Part shown: piece by piece, positions 21,344 through 46,138 of the stretch
How the letters are laid out: each line of letters begins with the position of its first letter
Position numbering within the stretch: the stretch's first letter is position 1
Source of the DNA: Scyliorhinus canicula
Lineage: Eukaryota
Assembly (NCBI RefSeq): GCF_902713615.1
Contig: NC_052149.1
Span: 15,294,260 to 15,358,259 of the forward strand
Length of the DNA stretch: 64,000 nucleotides
Direction of reading: 5' to 3'
The notes under the pieces: generated by a model
What the model was told of the DNA's origin: nothing
Seen by the model: only the letters and a program-made list of their open reading frames with translations
Databases searched by the model: none
Translations under genes and position numbers: made by a program

Positions 21344-22156
21344 TGTAGCCATGCTGGCCACGCAAAATGGACACTGAGCCAAACTAAAATGGAAGGCTGC
21401 TGAGAAACAGACAGTTCAGCCAGAACAGCAGTCTGCAAAGAGCAGTTTGCATTCTGCAGCAGCAGAAACCAGTTTGGGCTCAGGTGAAGAGACCTTAGCT
21501 AGGTGCAAATGGCAAAACGCTTTGCATGCTAATGAGGCCATCAGACTTGAACACCCACACAATAGATACATTTGGTTCTGAATGGACACATTCCAATCAA
21601 GACCCAGACATCGAGGCACCAGAAACCTCCGAACAAAAGGACATAAGAAACGCCCCCTCCATCACGGAGACCCCCTCGCATTGGGGAATTAATCCAGTAT
21701 CGATAAGAAATTGATCCAATAGGTAGAGCCCGCCCGGGAAGAGGGAAGGACAACGGAACCCCTATAAAAGATAGGGACCTCGTGTTGTCCGGTCTGTTAA
21801 ACCTGTGCTCCGGCCTCGACTGACACCTGGTACCCTGACTCCAGCCGTTGAGCACCAGCCGCCGAAACCGTAAGTTCAACGCTCGCTACGCGATCCAAGC
21901 CCGCTAGACTCCCAAGTGCCAGAACGCTTGCTGAAGGCTGCAGACAAAACCAGGACGAAGGCCTCGTTCTCTGACCTTGCCTGTTCCTGTTAGATAAGTA
22001 TTCTGTTTGCTTATGTTTAGTTGTAGCTTAGTCTCTTAGTGTGTGTGCATGAGTATTTATTATTAACTGTATAATAAATATTGATCGTTTGAACTTGACT
22101 AATCGGTGTATCGTCTTTATTACTTTGAACCCTTGAGGACCTGTGTTTCGTGCACA
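21344..22156 (+). repeat. 5' LTR (short U5)
   Basis: 21344-22129 matches 30073-30858 except C21833/T30562. CCAAT 21716, GC box near 21728, TATAAAA 21763, donor GTAAGT 21870, AATAAA 22073. Ends CGTGCACA just before the PBS. Confidence 0.9.
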
Positions 22157-22161
22157 TTTAG

Positions 22162-22180
22162 TGGCGACATCCGCCGGGAC
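22162..22180 (+). promoter_or_regulatory. Primer binding site, tRNA-Arg(UCU)-like
   Basis: TGGCGACATCCGCCGGGAC equals the complement of the recalled vertebrate tRNA-Arg(UCU) 3' end (TGGCGACTCCGCCGGGAC) plus one extra A. Confidence 0.75.
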
Positions 22181-22475
22181 CCTGTTGTAAGTGGAAACAC
22201 CACAGTGTTCAGGACCCTGAAATTTGAATTAGAACTCCAAATTGCAGAGAAATAAAGAGATCACAAGTATTCAAGGTGTTCAAAATAATAAGCGAAATTC
22301 GGAAGTGTGTTTTAGTGCATGCGTACTAACAGGGCTGTAAGGTAAAACTGAAAGCTTTTTGTTGCGACAAACTTTCGGTAGTTTTGTAATCGGAAAATAG
22401 CGTAAGCCGTACCCTTTTTCGAAACACCACCCCAGCAACCCCCTGTTCCAAATTATAAAAAGAGAGTCAGAGGAA

Positions 22476-24224
22476 ATGGCCATGCAGGCAATGGAACGCC
22501 TGATGGATCCAGCAAAGTTTGTGGTCGCAGCGACCAGCAGCAGTAGCAGAGTAGGCCAGTGTCCCACGTGGGAGCTGGAACTCCGCAAATATCTGCAGGG
22601 AAAGGGATGGCCCCTTTGGAAAGAGTTTTGTGCAAATGAGGAGACAGGTCCCGGAAGTATAGGTCATACTTGGTGGGAGAACCTCTCTCAGATACACAAA
22701 AAGAGTTTAAGTAAAGCACGCAAGCCGATGGCGATTGTGTCCTGCTTGGCACAGTTGCGAGGCGCAGAGGAGGTTATCAGGACGCTCCGGGCAGATTTAG
22801 AGGAAAGGAACCGAATGAGTAAGGTCGATGTCAGGGACATCGAGAAAGAAAACCTGGATCTTAAAGGGAAGTTGGCAGAGAAGGGTAGAGAGGTGGATGA
22901 TGCCAAGAGGGCTCACCAGTCTTGTCTAGCTCATCTGAACAGTTCCCAGACCCAGTATGAGAAAGCCTATCAGGACGTGCAACGTGCCGTTCTGATAAGA
23001 CAGGAATCGGAAAAGCAGGTGGAGGCATTGCAGAGGCAATGTTCCGATCTCAAAGCAGCTTTGAGAGCACTCCACGCTGCAACGACCGAACAAAGACAAA
23101 GCACAGTTGACCACGCGAAATGCAGAAAACAGATTGCGGAACTGCAATCTCTGCTTTCGGTGCAGAATGGCTTCCAAAGCACCTTTGGAGCACAGTTAGA
23201 TGGGGAAAATGCCCCAGATTGGCAGGAATTAAGCGAGACAGCGCAGCGTTATGTTCAGGGAACATGTGCGCCCGCAGCTCAGCAGAAACGACAGGCACCC
23301 CAACCCCCCACAGCTCAGACCATAACCGCACCCATGAATCCCGTAACCACACAGAGGAAAGCCGAATCAGAAGGCGCCCCAGACATAACTTACACCACCC
23401 CTTTAACAGTAACCCAGCTAAGGGACGCTTGTGAAAAGATCACTCCGTTCCTCCCCACCGCAGACCCCCACCAGTTCTTTGCGAAAGTAAAACAGCAGGC
23501 TACCATGTACGGCCTGGATGAGAGAGAGCAGGTTAAGCTCACCGTGCTGAGCTTAGACCAGAGTGTAGTGGCAGCCCTCCCCGACCCACAAAACGTGGCA
23601 GGAGGCAGCCTAGAGGAGATGCACACTGCTATTTTAGATGCCATCGGGTACAATAGAGGTGACCCCGTAGAAGGCTTGAATAAGTGCAGGCAGAAGAGAT
23701 CTGAACACCCCACAGCATTCGCCGGAAGGCTGTGGATTCACTTCAGCGCAGTTTTCGGACAGCTAGATAGAGCGCATTTAACCCGCGAGAACATGGTTAA
23801 GTGGACGCGCACAATTATCTCACACGCAACAGAAGCAGGACAGAGCGCTTGCAATAATTACGACCCCTCAGAAGAGGCCCATAACGAAAAATGGGTCCTC
23901 AAAAGATTGTCCCGCGCTTGGGAGCAATCGCTTCAGGCAAAAGCAAAGGTTAGATCCCCAGAAGAGGCTCAGGCTGCTGCAGATATCCAAGCAGTCAGAG
24001 AGCACCAGAAGCCCGCATGGGTAAATGAAGGCAAGAGCAGCCCTCAACAGAAAGGACAGGAATGCTATAACTGTGGACAGTTAGGGCATTGGGCAAAAGA
24101 GTGCCAAGCACCCCAGCGATCTCAGAGAGGCCAGCAGACAGGCACTCTGAACCGCAACAAAGCAAAACCAATCCACAATGTAGCAGTACAGTCAGGACCC
24201 ACCAATGTGGACGAGACGAACTGA
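22476..24224 (+). CDS. gag: Gag (582 aa): long coiled coil, capsid-like region, one CCHC zinc knuckle
   Basis: Open ORF after the PBS/leader; CYNCGQLGHWAKEC knuckle; ends in TGA in frame with pol. Confidence 0.92.
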   Translation: MAMQAMERLMDPAKFVVAATSSSSRVGQCPTWELELRKYLQGKGWPLWKEFCANEETGPGSIGHTWWENLSQIHKKSLSKARKPMAIVSCLAQLRGAEEVIRTLRADLEERNRMSKVDVRDIEKENLDLKGKLAEKGREVDDAKRAHQSCLAHLNSSQTQYEKAYQDVQRAVLIRQESEKQVEALQRQCSDLKAALRALHAATTEQRQSTVDHAKCRKQIAELQSLLSVQNGFQSTFGAQLDGENAPDWQELSETAQRYVQGTCAPAAQQKRQAPQPPTAQTITAPMNPVTTQRKAESEGAPDITYTTPLTVTQLRDACEKITPFLPTADPHQFFAKVKQQATMYGLDEREQVKLTVLSLDQSVVAALPDPQNVAGGSLEEMHTAILDAIGYNRGDPVEGLNKCRQKRSEHPTAFAGRLWIHFSAVFGQLDRAHLTRENMVKWTRTIISHATEAGQSACNNYDPSEEAHNEKWVLKRLSRAWEQSLQAKAKVRSPEEAQAAADIQAVREHQKPAWVNEGKSSPQQKGQECYNCGQLGHWAKECQAPQRSQRGQQTGTLNRNKAKPIHNVAVQSGPTNVDETN

Positions 24225-27200
24225 CGGTGTTCGGGCTCCCCCACTTGGGTCTGTGACACACTATGGGACTCATCAGGGAGGCCCGTAGTCACGGCAAAAG
24301 TCAAAGGGAAGCCCATAGAGTTATTGTGGGACACAGGAGGATCCCGCACCACCATTAACTCCACAACCACGGCACACGCAGACACGTGGCCGACCACCTC
24401 CACCATCACACTTAGCGGGTTCACCGGACACTCGCAGCAGGGACATATCACAGCACCCGTAGCGATCCAGCTAGGGAACATTAGCACAAGGCACCCCGTA
24501 GTTTTAGTAAATCTTCCCCGGACAGCAGAGCACATCCTGGGGATAGATTTTATGAACGCCCACAGCTTGTCGTTCGACCCAGTGAACCAGTGTGTCTGGC
24601 GAATGGCGAGATCAGACAGAGCCCCAGCCACCCTCACAGTAGGAGACTACGCTAATCGGATTAGCGCAGTGGGAGAGTACTCATTCGACCTGACTACACT
24701 CCACACCGACCGACAAATTAAGGCCCTTCTAAACAAACACAGGACAGCATTTGCAAGTCACCGTCATGACTGTGGCAGAATGACTGGACAAGTTCATGTT
24801 ACCGGACAGGACCCCCGACCGCAAAAGCAGTATAGATTTCCCCTCGAGGCAGAGGTGGAAATAGAAAAGGTTATAGGCAGCTTGTTGGACCAAGGTGTAC
24901 TGAGAACGGTAGCCTCCACCAACAATGCCCCTATTTGGCCAGTGAGGAAGCCCGATGGATCATGGCGTCTGACCATCGATTATCGGGAACTCAACAAAGT
25001 AACCCCCGCAGTAGCCCCACCGGTAGCTACTAGTCCCGAGACCATGCTCAAGCAGGGTCTCAACGCCAAGTACTTCACGGTATTGGACATCAGTAATGGA
25101 TTCTGGTCAATACCATTGGCAAAAGCGTGCCAATACAAATTCGCATTCACTTTTAAAACTCAGCAGTACACGTGGACATGCCTCCCACAAGGATTCCACA
25201 ATTCCCCCTCCATTTTCCACCGACAGCTGGCAAGTGGATTAGAAAAATTTTCCCGACCCGAATGTCTGGTACAGTACGTAGACGACCTACTACTGCAGAC
25301 AGACACAAAGGCAGAGCACATTTCGCTTCTGGCCGAACTCCTAGAACTCTTAACTGAAATTGGCTGTAAAGTTAACCCGAAAAAGGCCCAAATATTGGAA
25401 AGTAAAGTGATGTATTTGGGATCAGTCATCACGCACGGCAAACGCGAGATCGAATTCAAAAGAATTGATTCGATCGTCAAATTGCCCCTTCCCCAGAATG
25501 TATCAGCCCTCCGGTCGTTTTTAGGACTGGTTGGCTATTGTCGGAACCACATCGACGGATTCGCGACAAAAGCCGCCCCACTTTCAGACCTCCTTAAGAA
25601 AGGAGCCCCCTGGGAATGGCTTCCGCAGCATACAGGCGCTGTGGAAGAGTTAAAACGAGCCCTTAGTGCAGCACCCGCGCTGCTAGTCCCCGACCAACTT
25701 TCACCGTACGCAATCGAGGTAGCTAGCACAGATCTAACCCTCTCGGCCGTGTTGCTTCAAGAACGGCACGAGCAGCTAAGACCAGTGGCTTATGCCTCCC
25801 GACTGCTAGACCCAGTAGAACAAGGATTTTCAGCCTGTGAGAGGCACCTCCTTGCTGTCTTCTGGGCAGTGCAGTATTTCTCATACATCACCGGACTCAA
25901 CCCCATCACCATTCTAACCGAACACACACCCACACAGCTACTACTAGACGGTCGACTGAAGGACGGTTCAGTTAGCCAGATTAGGGCAGCTAGGTGGACC
26001 CTACTTTTACAAGGACGGGACATTACAGTGAAACGGACACGCACCCACACATACTTAGCAGACAACCTCCAATACCCAGGACAGCCCCATGACTGTGAAA
26101 TTGTAGCTCCCCTGCACAACACAGGACCCTTTTTAGCCAAAACACCCCCCAGGAAGATAGGGAACCCGAAACAAAGCCCCCAGCCCACAGACACGTGTGG
26201 ACCCTTGAGGATTTATGTAGACGGTTCCTCCACAGTTTTAAATGGTGAGCGTATCACAGGATGCGGCATCTACGTAGAGGACGCGCAGGGGCGCGCTCTC
26301 GAAGAAATCGCTCTTAAGTTACCAGGTCACTTAGGCGCGCAGGCAGCAGAGCTAGCAGCCATAGCGTACATAGTGGACCACCCCGATTCTTTCCCCAGCC
26401 CAGCAGACATATATTCAGACAGCTTATATGTCTGTAACAGTTTAACCGATTTTCTGCCCCTGTGGAGGACACGAGGTTTTGTCTCCGCAGACGGAAAACC
26501 CCTTCCATCAGCCCCTCTACTCCAGCATATTTTAGCGAAAGCGAAGGACAGGACCTTCGGCATTATAAAAGTTCGCAGCCACCATAGGTCATCACCACCT
26601 GGGAATGTAAAAGCCGACGCGTTGGCTAAGGCAGGTTCCAGGAGAGGACACTTATGGACCCCCCCAGCTAGCGCACCAGCTAGCGCCCCTGTGAGCGCAG
26701 TCCAAGTCTCACAGACTGATATTAAAGATCTCGTGGCAGCACAAAAACAGGACGGAGACCTCAGGGAGGTTTTCAAGGGAAACTTTGTGCCTGCTTACGA
26801 GCACTTTAAACACGCACTGACCACACATGAGGGTGTGATCATTAAGGACCGACTTTATGTGGTCCCACAGCAGGACAGGAATCAGATGATTGCCTTGTTC
26901 CATGACGGACACGGGCATCAGGGAATTGATGCAACAACGAGGCACCTCAGACAACTCTGTTGGTGGCCTGATCTCAGGAATGATGTAACGCACTACATAG
27001 AGAATTGCCTGATTTGTGCTCAGAATAACCCGGACAGGTATTCTAGGAAGGCACAACTTCGGCATACTCGCCCAGTTAACGGCCCTTGGACAAACCTCCA
27101 GATCGACTTTATAGGTCCATTGCCCCCTTGTAGGAATGGCTATAAATACGTTCTGGTGGTGATAGATACCTTTACCAAGTGGGTAGAGGCATTTCCCTCA

Positions 27201-28451
27201 CGAACAAATACAGCAAAGACAGCTGCAAAGATCCTGACCCACCACATCTTCACGAGATGGGGTTTACCCCGAAGTATCGATTCGGACCAGGGATCTCACT
27301 TTACAGGACGGGTCATGAGGAACGTCCTGACAATATTCGGAATCAAACAGAACTTCCACATTGCGTATCATCCACAGTCCAGCGGGATTGTGGAGCGCAT
27401 GAATCGGACCCTAAAAACTACCCTTAGGAAAATGGTTCAAGAGAACAATTCCACATGGGATTCAGTGCTCCCCTTTGCACTTATGTTCATAAGGAACACT
27501 GTCTCCACATCGACAGGACACACACCACATACACTCATGACCGGACGCCCTATGAAAGGTACAGAATTCCTTTTAGGACTGGACATGACAAGCCCCGAAG
27601 TGACGGCCCTCACACATGAAAAGGCAGTTAAAGAACTAGTTGAGACTGTGAGGTCTGCACAGCTCGCAGCCGCAGTCCAGCTAGGGAAACGCCGACAGCA
27701 ACATACTGCCTGTTTCAATAAGACCGTACACACCACAGAATTCCAGGTTGGGCAACAGGTAATGTTATCTGTTTATAACCCCAGCAGTTTTTTGGCTCCA
27801 AAATATTCCGGCCCCTACTCAATTTCGGACAAAATTAGCCCCTCCGTTTACAGGATAAAGTATCCTAATGGGAAGACCGCGTGGTTCCATATAAACCAGT
27901 TAAAGGCATATGGAACACAGGCCAACCATGCCCACCATGTCCTGCTAGACGCAGCAGAACACTTCACCCCGCCCACCAGAGACACTTTTCCACCATCCCC
28001 CTCACAGACCAGTACATCAACGGACTCGCCCACGACTCCGCCCACAGACCACTACAGACCACGCCCCGACACGCCCACAAGCTGCCACAGCAGAGACAGT
28101 AGGACAGACACTGACTCTGAAGACAGCGACACCACACAGCCATACAGCCCACACTGCACCACCTACGACCCCGACTCCAGTGACCCCATGGAAGTCACTT
28201 ACCTTAAAAACCCAGAACCACCACCCGACCCCGCCTACCCCGACAACACACTCGACGCCACACAATGGCACAGGGACAATTCCTACAGACTTGTCCGCAA
28301 TGACGAGAGTGACCCCCGGTCACACAACTCCAAAATAGCATGCCTGATCCACACAAGGGTGTGGGATCCGGGAGAGCAGGACGACACGGTGTCTGACTCC
28401 CGACACGGCAACCCCTTTGTGACCCTGTTCACAGAGGCAGAATCAAAGTGA
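24225..28451 (+). CDS. pol: Pol (PR-RT-tether-RNase H-IN), most likely expressed by readthrough of the gag UGA
   Basis: Same frame as gag with no further stop. PR LLWDTGG; RT LDISNGF, LPQG, YVDD; degenerate RNase H (EVAST...TEH); second RNase H (YVDGSS, AQAAEL, IYSDS, GNVKADALAK); IN HHCC, LQIDF / SDQG / VERMN, GPY motif. Confidence 0.95.
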   Translation, partial: RCSGSPTWVCDTLWDSSGRPVVTAKVKGKPIELLWDTGGSRTTINSTTTAHADTWPTTSTITLSGFTGHSQQGHITAPVAIQLGNISTRHPVVLVNLPRTAEHILGIDFMNAHSLSFDPVNQCVWRMARSDRAPATLTVGDYANRISAVGEYSFDLTTLHTDRQIKALLNKHRTAFASHRHDCGRMTGQVHVTGQDPRPQKQYRFPLEAEVEIEKVIGSLLDQGVLRTVASTNNAPIWPVRKPDGSWRLTIDYRELNKVTPAVAPPVATSPETMLKQGLNAKYFTVLDISNGFWSIPLAKACQYKFAFTFKTQQYTWTCLPQGFHNSPSIFHRQLASGLEKFSRPECLVQYVDDLLLQTDTKAEHISLLAELLELLTEIGCKVNPKKAQILESKVMYLGSVITHGKREIEFKRIDSIVKLPLPQNVSALRSFLGLVGYCRNHIDGFATKAAPLSDLLKKGAPWEWLPQHTGAVEELKRALSAAPALLVPDQLSPYAIEVASTDLTLSAVLLQERHEQLRPVAYASRLLDPVEQGFSACERHLLAVFWAVQYFSYITGLNPITILTEHTPTQLLLDGRLKDGSVSQIRAARWTLLLQGRDITVKRTRTHTYLADNLQYPGQPHDCEIVAPLHNTGPFLAKTPPRKIGNPKQSPQPTDTCGPLRIYVDGSSTVLNGERITGCGIYVEDAQGRALEEIALKLPGHLGAQAAELAAIAYIVDHPDSFPSPADIYSDSLYVCNSLTDFLPLWRTRGFVSADGKPLPSAPLLQHILAKAKDRTFGIIKVRSHHRSSPPGNVKADALAKAGSRRGHLWTPPASAPASAPVSAVQVSQTDIKDLVAAQKQDGDLREVFKGNFVPAYEHFKHALTTHEGVIIKDRLYVVPQQDRNQMIALFHDGHGHQGIDATTRHLRQLCWWPDLRNDVTHYIENCLICAQNNPDRYSRKAQLRHTRPVNGPWTNLQIDFIGPLPPCRNGYKYVLVVIDTFTKWVEAFPSRTNTAKTAAKILTHHIFTRWGLPRSIDSDQGSHFTGRVMRNVLTIFGIKQNFHIAYHPQSSGIVERMNRTLKTTLRKMVQENNSTWDSVLPFALMFIRNTVSTSTGHTPHTLMTGRPMKGTEFLLGLDMTSPEVTALTHEKAVKELVETVRSAQLAAAVQLGKRRQQHTACFNKTVHTTEFQVGQQVMLSVYNPSSFLAPKYSGPYSISDKISPSVYRIKYPNGKTAWFHINQLKAYGTQANHAHHVLLDAAEHFTPPTRDTFPPSPSQTSTSTDSPTTPPTDHYRPRPDTPTSCHSRDSRTDTDSEDSDTTQPYSPHCTTYDPDSSDPMEVTYLKNPEPPPDPAYPDNTLDATQWHRDNSYRLVRNDESDPRSHNSKIACLIHTRVWDPGEQDDTVSDSRHGNPFVTLFTEAESK

Positions 28452-29390
28452 GGTGTCCAGATGATGTAAGATAGGAATCGTTTGAGGGAAACGATGTCCT
28501 TTCTGATGGAACCTGCACGTATGTTTGTCTTCGTTTTATGTTTGTTTGTCTCAGGATTGTACAATGTTTCAGCTGGAGGATGGACATCTTCTTTTCAGCT
28601 GAAAAGATTGTGACCACCTCACATACACGTTAGTTTGTCCGCAGATACTTCTGAGAACTTCGGTTTGATTGGAGATCTTTTCCAAAGTTGTAAGGCCACA
28701 CGCCAAATAGTTTATCTGCAGATATCTCTGAGAACTTCAGTGATGTCCTCAGTTGGAGCATCTTGGCTCCCTTGGTTTCTTTTTTAGGTGCCCCTCTATT
28801 CGGCGAAATAGAGGCTGCAAGTCATGGTAAACACATTCGTACCCGTTTTTCCAGGTTACTCAGGCAGTGGACAAACGGCACTGAGGACCCGCCCTGTCTG
28901 AGAACCAACCCTTGGTCAGCCAAGCTCGGGTATGGCACAGCACGCCCTACCCGGGGATCCCATCCAACTCGTACCCGTAGCGGCCCATACGCAACTCATT
29001 CGGATGTTTCTTTCCAAATTTGTTTTCATTTTAGGTTAGGTAGCCCTTCGGCCGCCATCCCACATGCTATTTACATCCGGAAACATTCGGATGGTAAATC
29101 AGCAAAGCCTGCGAGACGGCTCGCAGAAGGAAGGATTGTTAGGTGTATGCTGGTCTTTAAATTCGCTTTTTGAAAAAAAAAATGAGGGGAGTCACAGGGT
29201 GTGACTTAGCCAGTCATTTTAAAGGGTCAATTGGGTTTTGAAAGACAGATGCACTAACAAGTAAAGGTCTTAAACTGTGTATTGACAGATACTGTGCTTG
29301 ATCCCAAAGGTTTCAAAGGACGAGACAGAGGTCGAAGCCAGGATTGTCAATACCGGAGGAAGAAGGAAGAGAAAGAGGAAGAACAGCAAA

Positions 29391-29744
29391 ATGATGGAAG
29401 CCCACTTATTACTATTTAATGTCATATGTATATGTGTGGAAACAAGACACGTTTCCCCCACAACCCCCACCGTAAATGTTAGTACAACAAACCCCCAGTG
29501 CTCAGCTCTGATCAGCGAGGTTCAGACCTGGTGTACTAAATTCATGACGTGGTACTCCATGTCCTACATAATCGAATCACTGTTGGTGATTGCGATCCTC
29601 ACCATCCTAGTGCAGACCCTCAGGTTGAGGAAATGGAAGAGGAGAGCCTCTCGTTCCAGCACCTCACCCATCTATAGAGTGCAATCCCCCATCTTCGGAT
29701 TCCACCAAACCCCTCAACCCCTCACTGATTACAACACTCTGTAA
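29391..29744 (+). CDS. Putative 117-aa single-pass membrane protein in the env position
   Basis: ATGATGG start 102 nt after the acceptor TTGACAG| (29288), with branch-like CACTAAC at 29252. Hydrophobic N-terminus, NVS sequon, C-x10-C, TM YIIESLLVIAILTILV, basic RLRKWKRR, tail ending DYNTL. Confidence 0.65.
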   Translation: MMEAHLLLFNVICICVETRHVSPTTPTVNVSTTNPQCSALISEVQTWCTKFMTWYSMSYIIESLLVIAILTILVQTLRLRKWKRRASRSSTSPIYRVQSPIFGFHQTPQPLTDYNTL

Positions 29745-30062
29745 ATAAAATTCAGCCATGTATTATATTGTTCCATACTCGACTGCCGAGTTGGGAAGTG
29801 TGATGTTGTGGTGTGAATGGTTAAGATTTTAGAGTGATTAAATGTTTAAGTTAAGGTTAAGGTTAATAGTGATAGGTAGAGGTTCCCAATTGTAGTAATG
29901 CATGTCCCTTTGACATAGGGCCAAGTAGAAATGTTAGTTAAAATTTTTTTCTCTTCTTCCCATAGTTTAGAACAGAGTAGAACAGGAACTGGCAAGAGGT
30001 CAGAACACAAGGAGGCAAAGTACATAGGTGATCCTTCACAATAGTATGATTGTGAGGATCAC

Positions 30063-30072
30063 AAGGAGGGAA
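30063..30072 (+). promoter_or_regulatory. Polypurine tract
   Basis: AAGGAGGGAA immediately before the TG of the 3' LTR. Confidence 0.85.
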
Positions 30073-31024
30073 TGTAGCCATGCTGGCCACGCAAAATGGA
30101 CACTGAGCCAAACTAAAATGGAAGGCTGCTGAGAAACAGACAGTTCAGCCAGAACAGCAGTCTGCAAAGAGCAGTTTGCATTCTGCAGCAGCAGAAACCA
30201 GTTTGGGCTCAGGTGAAGAGACCTTAGCTAGGTGCAAATGGCAAAACGCTTTGCATGCTAATGAGGCCATCAGACTTGAACACCCACACAATAGATACAT
30301 TTGGTTCTGAATGGACACATTCCAATCAAGACCCAGACATCGAGGCACCAGAAACCTCCGAACAAAAGGACATAAGAAACGCCCCCTCCATCACGGAGAC
30401 CCCCTCGCATTGGGGAATTAATCCAGTATCGATAAGAAATTGATCCAATAGGTAGAGCCCGCCCGGGAAGAGGGAAGGACAACGGAACCCCTATAAAAGA
30501 TAGGGACCTCGTGTTGTCCGGTCTGTTAAACCTGTGCTCCGGCCTCGACTGACACCTGGTATCCTGACTCCAGCCGTTGAGCACCAGCCGCCGAAACCGT
30601 AAGTTCAACGCTCGCTACGCGATCCAAGCCCGCTAGACTCCCAAGTGCCAGAACGCTTGCTGAAGGCTGCAGACAAAACCAGGACGAAGGCCTCGTTCTC
30701 TGACCTTGCCTGTTCCTGTTAGATAAGTATTCTGTTTGCTTATGTTTAGTTGTAGCTTAGTCTCTTAGTGTGTGTGCATGAGTATTTATTATTAACTGTA
30801 TAATAAATATTGATCGTTTGAACTTGACTAATCGGTGTATCGTCTTTATTACTTTGAATTTGACCTTGGAATACTTGTGACGTTGCCTATACGGCAGCTG
30901 GCGACTCCAGAGCTTAAATAATTACATAGAACAGAGCCTAGCAGTGTTAAGCACACGTCGAACTCGGAGGCGTGTTAATACACTCCAATAAACGCGTTTT
31001 ACGCCCATAGTAAAACGTGCAACA
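30073..31024 (+). repeat. 3' LTR (long U5)
   Basis: Copy of the 5' LTR to 30858, then 166 unique bp ending CGTGCAACA, followed by TSD CTGT. Confidence 0.9.
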
Positions 31025-31164
31025 CTGTCGATCTGAAGTCCACACTGATACGCTCGTCCATTAATGGTGGATTCCTTATCACAGCTGGCATCGCTGGAAG
31101 GGGTTACAGAGGAGTTATTTTCTGCATTGCCCAAGGTGATGTACAGCCTTTGCGTTGGCCCATT
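31025..31164 (-). CDS. ODF2L: ODF2L-like coding exon 3, 5' part (split by provirus)
   Basis: ctttgtattag|AAT GGG CCA... NGPTQRLYITLGNAENNSS...INGRAYQCGLQID; resembles the recalled ODF2 GPTHRLEIT motif. Confidence 0.85.
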
Positions 31165-42687: not shown

Positions 42688-45600
42688 CCAGAGCACAGGA
42701 ATGCAAGATCGGCTAAGGGTCTGCTGATGGGCCCAGGATCAAAGAACTTCTCAGAACTCTGCATTTTGCCTCACCTCTATTCCCAATACAACACATGTCA
42801 CCCAAGATGACATTCTGGAGCATATAGTCACAGGCATATCCATTGGCTGTATCTGTGCCACAGAAAGAGCATTAAGATCCTAGATTCTTTTTCTATTTTT
42901 CCCTCAATTCTACTTTTTGGTTGTGATGTTGGCTTTGCAATGTAGCAACATTGGCTGTGGTATTACTGAAGTCATTCTCACTCTTTTTGTTTTGGTTATG
43001 TATAAACAAATGTATTTGAAGTGAATTTCCAAATGGAAAATAAAAATGTATTGATTATTAATTTTGAAAGCTTGCCCTGCACGCCCAAGTCAAGATCTTT
43101 TTCAAAAAAAACTTGTACAATAATAATGATCTTTATTACTGTCACAAGTCAGCTTACATTACACTGCAATGAAGTTACTGTGAAAAGCCCCAGGTCGCCT
43201 CACTCTGGCACCTGTTCAGGTACACTGAGGGAGAATTCAGAATGTCCAATTCGCCTAACAAGCACGTCTTTCGGGACTTGTGGGAGGAAACTGGAGCTCC
43301 CGGAGGAAGCCCACGCAGACACGGGGAGAACGTGCAGACTCCGCACAGACAGTGACCCAAGCTGGGACTCAAACCTGGGTCCCTAATGGATGTGGGCGTC
43401 GTTGGCTGGGTCAGCATTTGTTGCCATCCCTAATTGCCCTTGAACTGAGTGGCTTGCTTGACCATTTCAGAGGGGCAGTTATGAGTCCACCACATTGCCT
43501 GGGTGTGGAATCACATGTCGGGTAAGGACGGACCAGGTAAGGATGGCAGATTTCCGTCCCTGAGGGACACGAGTGAAGCAACCGTTTTTCATGACAATCA
43601 ACGATAGCTCCATGGAAACTATTAGCTATGCTAATTTTATATTCCAGGTTTATCAATTGAGAATTTAACTTCCACCAGGTGAGGCTTGAACCCTCGCCCC
43701 CAGCCCCCAAGAGCATTATCCAGAGCCTGTGGAATATTAGCCCAGTGACATTACCACTGCATCAACACCTAGGAAGGGTGCGATTGCACTTAAAGGGTGC
43801 AGAGGGGATTCAGCAGGTTGTTGCCTGGTCTGGAGCGTTTCACCTATGCAGAGCGGCTGGCTAAACTGAGATTGTTTTCCTTGGAACAAAAACAAACGGA
43901 TGACCTCCTTGAGGTGCTTAAAATTATGAGGGACATAGATAGGAAGGGACTTTTTCCCTTAGTGGAGGGGTCACCAACCAGAGGGCATTGATTTAAAGTA
44001 AGGGGCAGGAGGGGATTTGAGGAGAAGTTTTTTCACCCAGAGGGTGTTGGGAATCTGGAACTCGCTGCCTGAAAGGAAAGGGCCCTTACAACATTTAAGA
44101 AGCATTTAGACAAGCACTTGAAAAACACCATAGCATACAAGGTAACGGCAAAGTGCTGGAAAATGGGATTAGAGTTGATTGGTGCTTGATAGCCGGCATG
44201 GACACACAGGGCCTCCTTTTGTCCTGTAAAACTCAGTGATTATCTTCCTCAAATATATATAATAAATATTAAGAAAATTTGCCGTCCTATCGCAGCAACT
44301 CCTGGGGAATCTGTTGTATACCAACCAGTCTGGTAAACCAGTTCACCATTCCTCTGGAACCTGTCACTGGAACTCTTCCACCCAGCTGTGGTTTCAGAGC
44401 AGGGGTTTGACCCCAGTGTGGTTTCAGGGCAGGGGTTTGACCCCAGTGTGGTTTCAGGGCAGGGGTTTGACCCCAGTGTGGTTTCAGGGCAGGGGTTTGT
44501 CCCACTGTGGTTTCTGGGCAGGGTTTTGACCCCAGTGTGGTTTCAGAGCAGGGGTTTGACCCCAGTGGGGTTTCAGGGCAGGGGTTTGTCCCACTGTGGT
44601 TTCAGGGCAGGGGGTTGACCCCAGTGTGGTTTCAGGGCAGGGGTTTGTCCCCAGTGTGGTTTCTGGGCAGGTGTTTGACCCCAGTGTGGTTTCAGGGCAG
44701 GGGTTTGACCCCAGTGTGGTTTCAGGGCAGGGGGTTGACCCCACTGTGGTTTCTGGGCATGTGATTGACCCCAGTGTGGTTTCTGGGCAGGGGGATGTCC
44801 CCAGTGTGGTTTCAGAGCAGGGGTTTGACCCCAGTGTGGTTTCTGGGCAGGGGTTTGACCCCAGTGTGGTTTCAGGGCAGGGTTTGACCCCAGTGTGGTT
44901 TCAGAGCAGTGGTTTGACCCCAGCGTGGTTTCAGGGCAGGGGTTTGTCCCACTGTGGTTTCTGGGCAGGGGTTTGACCCCAGTGTGGTTTCTGGGCAGGG
45001 GTTTGACCCCAGTGTGGTTTCAGAGCAGGGGTTTGACCCCAGCGTGGTTTCAGGGCAGGGGTTTGTCCCACTGTGGTTTCTGGGCAGGGGTTTGGCCCAC
45101 TGTGGTTTCTGGGCAGGGGTTTGACCCTAGTGTGGTTTCTGGGCAGGGGTTTGATCCTAGTGTGGTTTCTGGGCAGGGGGTTGACCCCAGTGTGGTTTCT
45201 GGGCAGGGGTTTGACCCCAGTGTGGTTTCTGGGCAGGGGGATGTCCCCAGTGTGGTTTCTGGGCAGGGGTTGACCCCAGCGTGGTTTCTGGGCAGGGGGA
45301 TGTCCCCAGTGTGGTTTCTGGGCAGGGGTTGACCCCAGTGTGGTTTCTGGGCAGGGGTTGACCCCAGCGTGGTTTCTGGGCAGGGGGATGTCCCCAGTGT
45401 GGTTTCTGGGCAGGGGTTTGATCCCAGTGTGGTTTCTGGGCAGAGGTTTGATCCCAGTGTGGTTTCTGGGCAGGGGTTTGACCCCAGTGTGGTTTCTGGG
45501 CAGAGGTTTGATCCCAGTGTGGTTTCTGGGCAGGGGTTTGACCCCAGTGTGGTTTCTGGGCAGAGGTTTGACCCCAGTATGGTTTCTGGACAGGGGTTTG

Positions 45601-45815
45601 TCCCCAGTGTAGTTTCTGGGCAGGGGTTTGATCCCAGTGTGGTTTCAGGGCAGAGATTTGACCCCAGTGTGGTTTCAGAGCAGGGGTTTGACCCCAGTGT
45701 GGATTCTGGGCACAGCTTGACCCCAGTGTGGTTTCTGGGCAGGGGTTTGACCCCAGTGTGGTTTCAGGGCAGGGGTTTGACCCCAGTGTGGTTTCAGGGC
45801 AGGGGTTTGACCCCA
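42688..45815 (+). repeat. 3.1-kb direct duplication, copy 1
   Basis: Nearly identical to 46137-49264 (offset 3448-3449; about 4 differences seen by eye). Confidence 0.93.
44380..45815 (+). repeat. 30-bp G-rich minisatellite, about 48 units
   Basis: Unit CCCCAGTGTGGTTTC(A/T)GGGCAGGGGTTTGA. Confidence 0.95.
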
Positions 45816-46138
45816 TAGAACATAGAACAGTACAGCACAGAACAGGCCCTTCGGCCCTCAATGTTGTGCCGAACAATGATCACCCTACTTTAAACCCATG
45901 TAACCCGTAACCCAACAATCCCCCCATTAACCTTACACTACGGGCAATTTAGCATGGCCAATCCACCTAACCCGCACATCTTTGGACTGTGGGAGGAAAC
46001 CGGAGCACCCGGAGGAAACCCACGCACACAGGGGGAGGACGTGCAGACTCCACACAGACAGTGACCCAGCCGGGAATCGAACCTGGGACCCTGGAGCTGT
46101 GAAGCATTGATGCTAACCACCATGCTACCGTGAGGCCC
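45814..46138 (-). mobile_element. Full-length V-SINE with CR1-type (TTCTATG)n tail at the duplication junction
   Basis: Minus strand GGGCCTCACGGTAGCATGG...GGCCGAAGGGCCTGTTCTGTGCTGTACTGTTCTATGTTCTATG. Confidence 0.92.

Follow-up and report, generated by a model that had tools for sequence, protein, structure and literature searches.

A small open reading frame (ORF) follows pol and precedes the 3' LTR in a 9.5-kb LTR element located at 21344-30858 of the 64,000-nt stretch of DNA analysed here (the window). It is a real gene that sits in the env position and is conserved in a multi-copy retrovirus family of catsharks; this is shown or strongly supported by the data below. An initial annotation had proposed a spliced gene for a small membrane protein in place of env, and our analysis agrees: env was not detected, and the gene is conserved in 11 gene models. 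In a literature search, with most subscription journals and Repbase reports outside its scope, neither this family nor any small membrane protein from the env slot of a shark or SnRV-clade ERV was found described. The family, a small env-slot glycoprotein of an SnRV-related shark-type ERV, is apparently undescribed so far.

Structure and affiliation of the provirus

The features of the element outside the small gene are as follows.

21344..22156, + strand: 5' LTR (TGT...ACA); the portion common with the 3' LTR is 21344-22129
21763, + strand: TATA-like box within the 5' LTR
22073, + strand: AATAAA within the 5' LTR
22162..22180, + strand: PBS-like sequence beginning TGGCGAC, read from the sequence
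22476..24224, + strand: gag, 582 aa, with a coiled-coil-like region and one CCHC knuckle
24225..28451, + strand: pol, in frame with gag, 0 stops, PR-RT-tether-RNase H-IN (GPY) and a low-complexity tail
30063..30072, + strand: polypurine tract, a sequence signal
30073..30858, + strand: 3' LTR; the match to the 5' LTR ends 27 nt before ACA

The LTR pair shows one mismatch in 786 bp (785/786 identical) and both gag and pol are open, which argues for recent movement of the element. From the one LTR change, and at the shark rate assumed in PMC4422223, its age comes to some 3 million years, an estimate to be taken very loosely. According to PMC8278194, TGT/ACA LTR ends are usual for class III ERVs. 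No exact TSD was found around the element. Its PBS may be that of an arginine tRNA, as in SnRV. The gag frame terminates in UGA-CGG-UGU, a readthrough context that PMC13517186 gives for CTFV type II readthrough. Neither Gly2 nor a canonical late domain was found in the 582 aa of Gag, and membrane budding is therefore not evident; the coiled coil is read solely from composition and sub-threshold matches. After the integrase, Pol continues into a long Ser/Thr/Pro/Asp-rich extension (about 27900-28451).

Some observations concern the LTRs and their surroundings. U3 contains an open frame of 67 codons without ATG (30107-30310). Beyond the 3' LTR match (30859-31150), a differing stretch runs up to a CA at 30896 and is followed by GCTGG, a 4/5 match to the 5' flank GCTGT, which overlaps a second PBS-like TGGCGACTCC at 30899; the roughly 290 nt after this second site are CpG-rich (o/e 0.95). 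The sequences following the two LTRs have no significant similarity when compared (257/1000 shuffles), and the right end may be an aberrant junction or a second element. Farther downstream, a 3449-nt segment is duplicated almost identically within 42688-50411, where units of 30 nt and 37 nt also form tandem arrays, and 50547-51200 looks by eye like an exon of a RING and B-box (TRIM-like) host gene.

The RT clade, the presence of a tether with RNase H and the PR-RT-RH-IN order all place the element in Retroviridae. In a midpoint-rooted RT tree of 52 rows (51 of 120 matches plus the window), it falls together with SnRV and gamma-like rows in a clade supported at 98/99, from which Loki-like and Gypsy-like rows are separate. 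The nearest group in the tree consists of frog and coelacanth ERVs (90/91, unstarred), not directly of SnRV. Frog and coelacanth ERVs also gave the best RT-region matches, at 52-57%; among the tree rows, identity to these ERVs is 55-58%, compared with 48.8% to SnRV Pol (P0021) and about 40% to Loki-like and gamma-like rows. SnRV has the highest RT identity among named viruses (34% over 705 aa when Pol is compared), and the nodes joining the element to SnRV are without resolution. In the supplement of PMC7947760, the RT motif DISNGFWS occurs at least three times, each of these in the SnRV row, which we equated with P0021 by eye; the Loki rows differ. On these comparisons the element appears to be an SnRV-related retrovirus. 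A lokiretrovirus was ruled out by the RT motifs and the RT tree. ERV4 (Chong et al. 2014) was rejected because it is defined without a Gag zinc finger or GPF/Y and the element has CCHC and GPY; XtERV-S/ERV-L was also weighed as the element's identity and rejected.

Common to SnRV and the element are a Gag that is non-myristoylated and coiled-coil, with a single zinc finger (PMC2717909), gag-pol readthrough (PMC13517186) and complex splicing with 3' ORFs (PMC12193657), and the elephant shark is known to carry SnRV-like ERVs (PMC4422223). SnRV (clade Huo), however, has an env, and none was detected here. According to PMC12193657, the SnRV genome holds env and four accessory ORFs, which are spliced and one of which sits at the 3' end of env; in that account, the SnRV 3'ORF is a 205-aa Tat-like candidate without description as a membrane protein. 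Lokiretroviruses resemble the element in their dual RNase H, coiled-coil Gag and aquatic vertebrate hosts, but their Env is Mononegavirales F-like (PMC7947760). The closest frog Pol model (P0001, Pyxicephalus) has a hydrophobic segment and an Ig-like domain at its end (about 1195-1295, sub-threshold Pfam); this may be a related ERV with an Ig-fold protein after pol, or a host exon joined by the model.

The small gene, its product and its relatives

The signals for a spliced transcript and the parts of the predicted product are listed here.

21870..21875, + strand: predicted splice donor GTAAGT in the predicted R, upstream of the PBS, 6/6 intronic consensus
22187..22192, + strand: second candidate donor GTT/GTAAGT, 3' of the PBS
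29252..29288, + strand: CACTAAC as branch point and TTGACAG as 3' splice site, sequence signals
29355..29390, + strand: purine-rich 5' part of the exon, enhancer-like, 94% purine
29391..29744, + strand: small ORF for a predicted type I membrane glycoprotein of 117 aa (translation, relatives)
29391..29447, + strand: signal-peptide-like segment, aa 1 to about 19 (hydropathy and -3/-1 heuristics)
29448..29525, + strand: S/T/P-rich stalk with sequon N29; length variable in relatives, Cys37 unconserved
29526..29621, + strand: conserved core of an aromatic membrane-proximal helix and a TM helix (identity, periodicity, AF2), with W47, C48, F51, W54, Y55, S56, S58 and Y59, then E62, L65 and A68 in the TM (alignment)
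29622..29654, + strand: polybasic juxtamembrane patch, aa 78-88 (alignment)
29655..29744, + strand: cytoplasmic tail; Tyr95 conserved, terminal YNTL unconserved

The donor at 21870, CACTAAC at 29252, the acceptor at 29288 and the purine-rich run, on which the spliced transcript of the initial annotation was built, were all confirmed in the sequence; the donor at 22187, equal in quality to that at 21870, had been overlooked. The GTAAGT at 21870 in the 5' LTR has a counterpart at 30599 in the 3' LTR. According to PMC8278194, an env donor that precedes the PBS is characteristic of spumaviruses and has been predicted in XtERV-S. CACTAAC at 29252 is unique in the element, its A lying 31 nt before the AG at 29288, and the pyrimidine tract of this acceptor is weak (10/20). 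Stronger acceptors, with 15-18/20 pyrimidines, are found at 28554, 28787, 29034 and 29965; the first three ATG frames behind each of them reach at most 46 codons, and the four sites suggest complex splicing. No ATG occurs in 21740-21900 and the first one past the acceptor is at 29391, as had been claimed for the first AUG of the predicted spliced RNA. All AGs within 29288-29341 lead to this same ATG. In relatives the junction lies about 46-68 nt before the Met; the distance here is 102 nt, which leaves it uncertain which AG is used. We infer that the small ORF is made from an env-like spliced mRNA that joins an LTR donor to an acceptor near 29288. An AATAAA overlaps the stop codon of the ORF and is followed by a GT-rich run (29742-29815), where the spliced mRNA might be polyadenylated internally; internal signals of this kind are present in Ovex1 as well (PMC2717909).

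The product carries every element that had been read from it before: a signal-like start, NVS (at 29), one hydrophobic segment (near 57-77), RLRKWKRR and a terminal TDYNTL; its cysteines are at 13, 15, 37 and 48. The ectodomain had been described as about 35 Ser/Thr/Pro-rich residues; this composition (50%) applies to the first ~25 residues, but the last ~14 form the aromatic helix. Judging from the alignment of relatives, predicted cleavage would leave an ectodomain of ~37-48 aa, a spread of about 10 aa. The mature protein has a single hydrophobic segment with positive charge C-terminal to it, which points to an N-out/C-in topology. AlphaFold2 models a continuous helix over residues 37-90 and little else (pLDDT 86-93 at aa 51-80, pTM 0.31). 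Homodimer prediction of the 117-aa protein scored 0.02, which we give no weight either way. With an architecture filter that was fixed after the protein had been seen, the combination of signal-like start, TM and basic patch arose in 0/3000 dinucleotide shuffles of 28452-30072, TM and basic patch alone in 1/3000, and the small ORF was the sole passer among 111 window ORFs of 60-200 aa. The protein matched no family in Pfam, the PDB or the ESM Atlas (best 0.88 and 0.85) and no host gene family, and its 117 aa contain no furin site, fusion peptide, heptad repeats or CX6CC.

That the ORF is not conserved had been named as an outcome that would speak against the gene; relatives were found in 11 gene models at 10 loci of two Scyliorhinus species, on contigs of nine different lengths, known as predicted models that are ascertained for open frames (P0127, an isoform of P0126, is left out of the row counts below). 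A phmmer search of 1.84 billion representatives gave five matches, four of them RefSeq models of Scyliorhinus canicula or S. torazame; the fifth, P0125, a 1498-aa repetitive ENA protein, was removed as a low-complexity TM match. A profile search, for which 8000 longer candidates were scored, gave 10 matches, all Scyliorhinus gene models. With every relative from a catshark, the host of the element is probably a shark. Neither search of protein models produced an Env-length relative or a full Env carrying the segment, and a word-indexed single-protein homolog search found no relative among two candidates of 64-205 aa. Identity of the small protein to near-complete relatives is 40-60%, and 26% to the truncated P0132. 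The N-terminal part of P0124 is apparently frameshifted and has no sequon. The N-terminal extensions of P0121-P0123 (~100 aa) are mutually unrelated and were not counted as protein.

Most relatives turned up as isoforms modelled for unrelated host genes (SUGCT, KIAA1958, a galectin-domain gene, a B3GAT1-like gene, CFAP36, a HEPACAM2-like gene and PTGER3), in which host sequence continues into the ORF exon. At four loci (P0122, P0126/P0127, P0131 and P0132), unrelated upstream sequences meet this exon at one and the same point, 22 codons before the conserved Met, an observation in favour of an acceptor in use shortly before the ORF. RefSeq isoform models of this type generally rest on RNA-seq introns. 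From the sequences, the shared junction would fit scattered intronic insertions with a working acceptor. It appears that inserted copies of the family serve as splice traps: at least eight host genes of catsharks have isoform models that are chimeric with it, the apparent chimeras among S. torazame models being P0124 and P0126-P0132. The purine-rich exon part is an in-frame K/R/E-rich peptide in the chimeric relatives.

Conservation is uneven along the protein. Averaged over pairs of rows, identity is highest for the basic patch (78%) and the membrane-proximal helix (74%), followed by the TM (59%), the tail (49%), the stalk (42%) and the signal region (31%). Over aa 46-88 identity is 0.69, compared with 0.33 over aa 2-45 (0/20000 permutations, 6 rows), a split that was picked after viewing the alignment and a contrast that stalk alignment error may inflate. 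The core is without indels, with 31 aa from Trp-Cys to the basic patch in 9/9 rows; the stalk has in-frame indels, and Met to Trp-Cys spans 46-56 aa. W47, C48, W54, Y55, S56, Y59, L65, A68, K81 and W82 are invariant (juxtamembrane C48 in 11/11 rows), E62 is present in 9/10 rows and Y95 in 8/9. The sequon is kept through substitutions (NVS, NDT, NDS, NTS) in 10/11 rows. A hydrophobic N-terminus with small -3/-1 residues, a heuristic measure, is seen in 9/9 relatives with Met, and the basic patch has 6-8 K/R in 15 aa in all nine rows covering the region. No row has Gly2 (0/11), and hence there is no myristoylation motif. The C-x10-C loop and the terminal YxxL sorting cue, both noted earlier, are present in this copy but private to it: Cys37 is missing at its column, and YxxL at the terminus, in 10/10 relatives. 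The alignment revealed no conserved ITAM, ITIM or YxxL in the tail. A TM-distal Cys occurs in 9/9 relatives with TM and not in this copy. Conservation is concentrated on one helical face (p=0.025); two other conservation tests were weak (invariant columns numbered 20 where 13.9 were expected, P=0.05, and the best window gave p=0.11).

The env slot and comparable systems

Between pol and the branch point of the small gene lies a spacer with the following features.

28452..29251, + strand: spacer, which contains strong acceptors and the two reading frames below
28494-28613: 39-codon hydrophobic ORF with NVS, just after pol, overlapping a T-rich acceptor tract
28694-29173: frame of 159 codons without a stop, rich in Arg, Pro and Ser, with the 28787 acceptor inside it

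Pfam searches revealed no env match in three frames of the spacer and no Env match in six frames flanking the small ORF. The 39-codon ORF may be a by-product of the T-rich acceptor tract. The 159-codon frame is marginal when set against shuffles (62/5000) and flank tiles (2/54); it has a borderline hydrophobic 19-mer (KD 1.8) with about 120 residues after it, no PDB match and no similarity to the small ORF. The tail of SnRV Env is 136 residues (PMC12193657), and the frame may therefore be an env remnant. We consider it possible that it represents an anchor and tail left from env or a spliced accessory exon; if it is an env remnant, the accessory-gene explanation discussed below is favoured. 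The spacer also contains a 34-nt direct repeat (85%; 28631-28664 and 28708-28741) and several short palindromes. Its predicted RNA folding showed no strong structure, with z no lower than -2.0 in 11 windows; 29745-29864 gave a z of -2.5.

The initial annotation had likened the small protein to reovirus FAST proteins. Like p10, p14 and p15, it is small (within 60-210 aa), has one TM in an inferred N-out/C-in topology and carries a cytosolic polybasic motif, with at least three K/R within 15 aa after the TM. The likeness fails on four features of the family, namely the signal peptide (9/9), the sequon (10/11), Gly2 (0/11) and Cys37 (0/10 relatives). FAST proteins, as PMC3952855 describes them, traffic without a signal peptide or glycosylation and use the TM as a reverse signal anchor, in agreement with the caveat that the earlier proposal had attached to itself; the polybasic motif of p14 is a Golgi export signal (PMC3952855). 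The shark family, by contrast, has a signal-peptide-like N-terminus (by heuristics) where none is expected and keeps a sequon, with predicted glycosylation, where glycosylation should be absent. It has neither a Gly2 acylation site within an N-myristoylation motif nor a conserved p10-type cystine loop. Its predicted ectodomain is about 37-48 aa and varies by ~10 aa; for a FAST or sORF2-like protein a length near 30 aa that is rather constant would be expected. On sequence grounds the protein would not be a FAST protein; it may still work in an sORF2-like way.

The sORF2 proteins of MDG1-group insect LTR retrotransposons are likewise small single-TM proteins with a basic patch in env-less LTR elements, and some lepidopteran copies lie downstream of pol (10.1101/2025.03.14.642691). 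Their host elements are Metaviridae, however, as opposed to Retroviridae here, and the description in 10.1101/2025.03.14.642691 has them usually myristoylated, with an ectodomain near 30 aa and no mention of a signal peptide. The sORF2 screen reported there was run on arthropods, nackednaviruses and picornaviruses, with MGxxxS/T as a requirement; insect sORF2 and Env are stated never to occur together (PMC13486581). Other non-Env membrane proteins are found in the env slot of non-class I/II ERVs, namely the nectin3 of CrocERV31 and ORF3 of Ovex1 (PMC4299795, PMC2717909). Nectin3 stands in place of env in this crocodilian ERV and is under purifying selection (PMC4299795), and Ovex1 ORF3 is on a spliced transcript (PMC2717909), as predicted for the small ORF. 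Nectin3 differs in being host-derived and having three Ig domains (PMC4299795), compared with 117 aa and no host homolog found for the shark protein; Ovex1 ORF3 differs in its length of 873 aa (PMC2717909).

Candidate roles of the small glycoprotein

We tentatively propose that the small protein is an Env substitute that acts through its membrane-embedded face at cell contacts. Insect sORF2 and the nectin3 that took the place of env are precedents. We choose this role because an element without env but with intact coding regions would, under selection, most plausibly retain a surface protein in order to reach new cells; an element copying inside one cell only would presumably have little use for a surface glycoprotein. 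The conserved part lies in or near the membrane and the exposed stalk is variable, which argues against receptor binding and for helix-helix contact in the bilayer. The spliced product would enter the ER, lose its signal peptide and be N-glycosylated, and the basic patch may help to deliver it to the plasma membrane. There, the invariant face (W47, F51, W54/Y55, S58, E62, L65 and C48) could self-associate or grip a host membrane protein; this contact would take place where cells touch, with no fusion machine of FAST or Env type. The tail might link the contact to Gag cores, so that cores pass to neighbouring cells and ultimately to germ cells, a step modelled by analogy on the proposal for insect sORF2.

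A role as a host-modulating accessory protein of a complex SnRV-like retrovirus is also quite possible, and nearly as likely as that of an Env substitute. Such a protein would bind or reroute a host membrane protein or form a channel, acting through its TM Glu and juxtamembrane Cys, in an element that lost env or borrows it in trans. Vpu, glycoGag, papillomavirus E5 and the small viroporins would be its analogues, and a polar TM residue combined with a juxtamembrane Cys, here E62 (9/10 rows) and the invariant Cys (11/11), is typical of TM-mediated adaptors and oligomers. The spliced accessory ORFs of SnRV, with one at the 3' end of env (PMC12193657), fit this explanation, as would env remains in the spacer; sub-threshold look-alikes (KSHV K1, adenovirus E3, influenza M2) are small glycoproteins too and serve as leads only. 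It is weakened by a spacer without an env match in Pfam or the PDB, by a tail lacking a conserved ITAM, ITIM or YxxL, and by family matches that all fall below curated cut-offs or under 0.9. We judge it unlikely that the gene is an ancient, internally deleted Env kept by selection as a mini-Env, a reading of its origin that is compatible with a role in spread. Predicted expression and topology are Env-like, the aromatic membrane-proximal helix resembles Env stem regions, and the TM-distal Cys of 9/9 relatives with TM, missing in this copy, would fit as well; yet no Env-length relative emerged from the 1.84 billion representatives or the 8000 longer candidates, the protein has no furin site, fusion peptide, CX6CC or PDB match, and the stalk looks like a mucin-like linker and not like an Env fragment.

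Still less probable is that the ORF has no current function, being a passenger or a captured host exon kept open by the youth of the element and by gene-model ascertainment. The element is young, its relatives are predicted models only, and P0124 has its apparent N-terminal frameshift and no sequon; against this, architecture, sequon and core spacing are kept across 40-60% identity, and no host gene family was matched. A true FAST-type cell-cell fusogen is very improbable: size, single TM, polybasic patch, amphipathic ectodomain helix and ectodomain length (about 37-48 aa) lie within or near the limits of the sORF2 screen, but the signal peptide and sequon are conserved, the myristoylation motif is missing from 11/11 rows, the cystine loop is private to this copy and the stalk varies in length.

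Whichever of the two leading roles applies, a conserved surface glycoprotein in the env slot of a young, coding-intact shark ERV would either carry Env-independent transmission over to vertebrates or add a new class to the accessory membrane proteins of retroviruses. The general assumption is that ERVs without env multiply inside one cell only. The broader form of the Env-substitute proposal, that in a vertebrate retrovirus lineage a 117-aa glycoprotein with a signal peptide replaced Env and cores pass directly from cell to cell, from soma to germ line, is somewhat doubtful. If it is true, Env was replaced convergently with insect sORF2 by a different design, and screens that look for an intact env or a myristoylation motif would miss the lineage; a large screen for actively invading ERVs demanded an intact env (PMC10435555).
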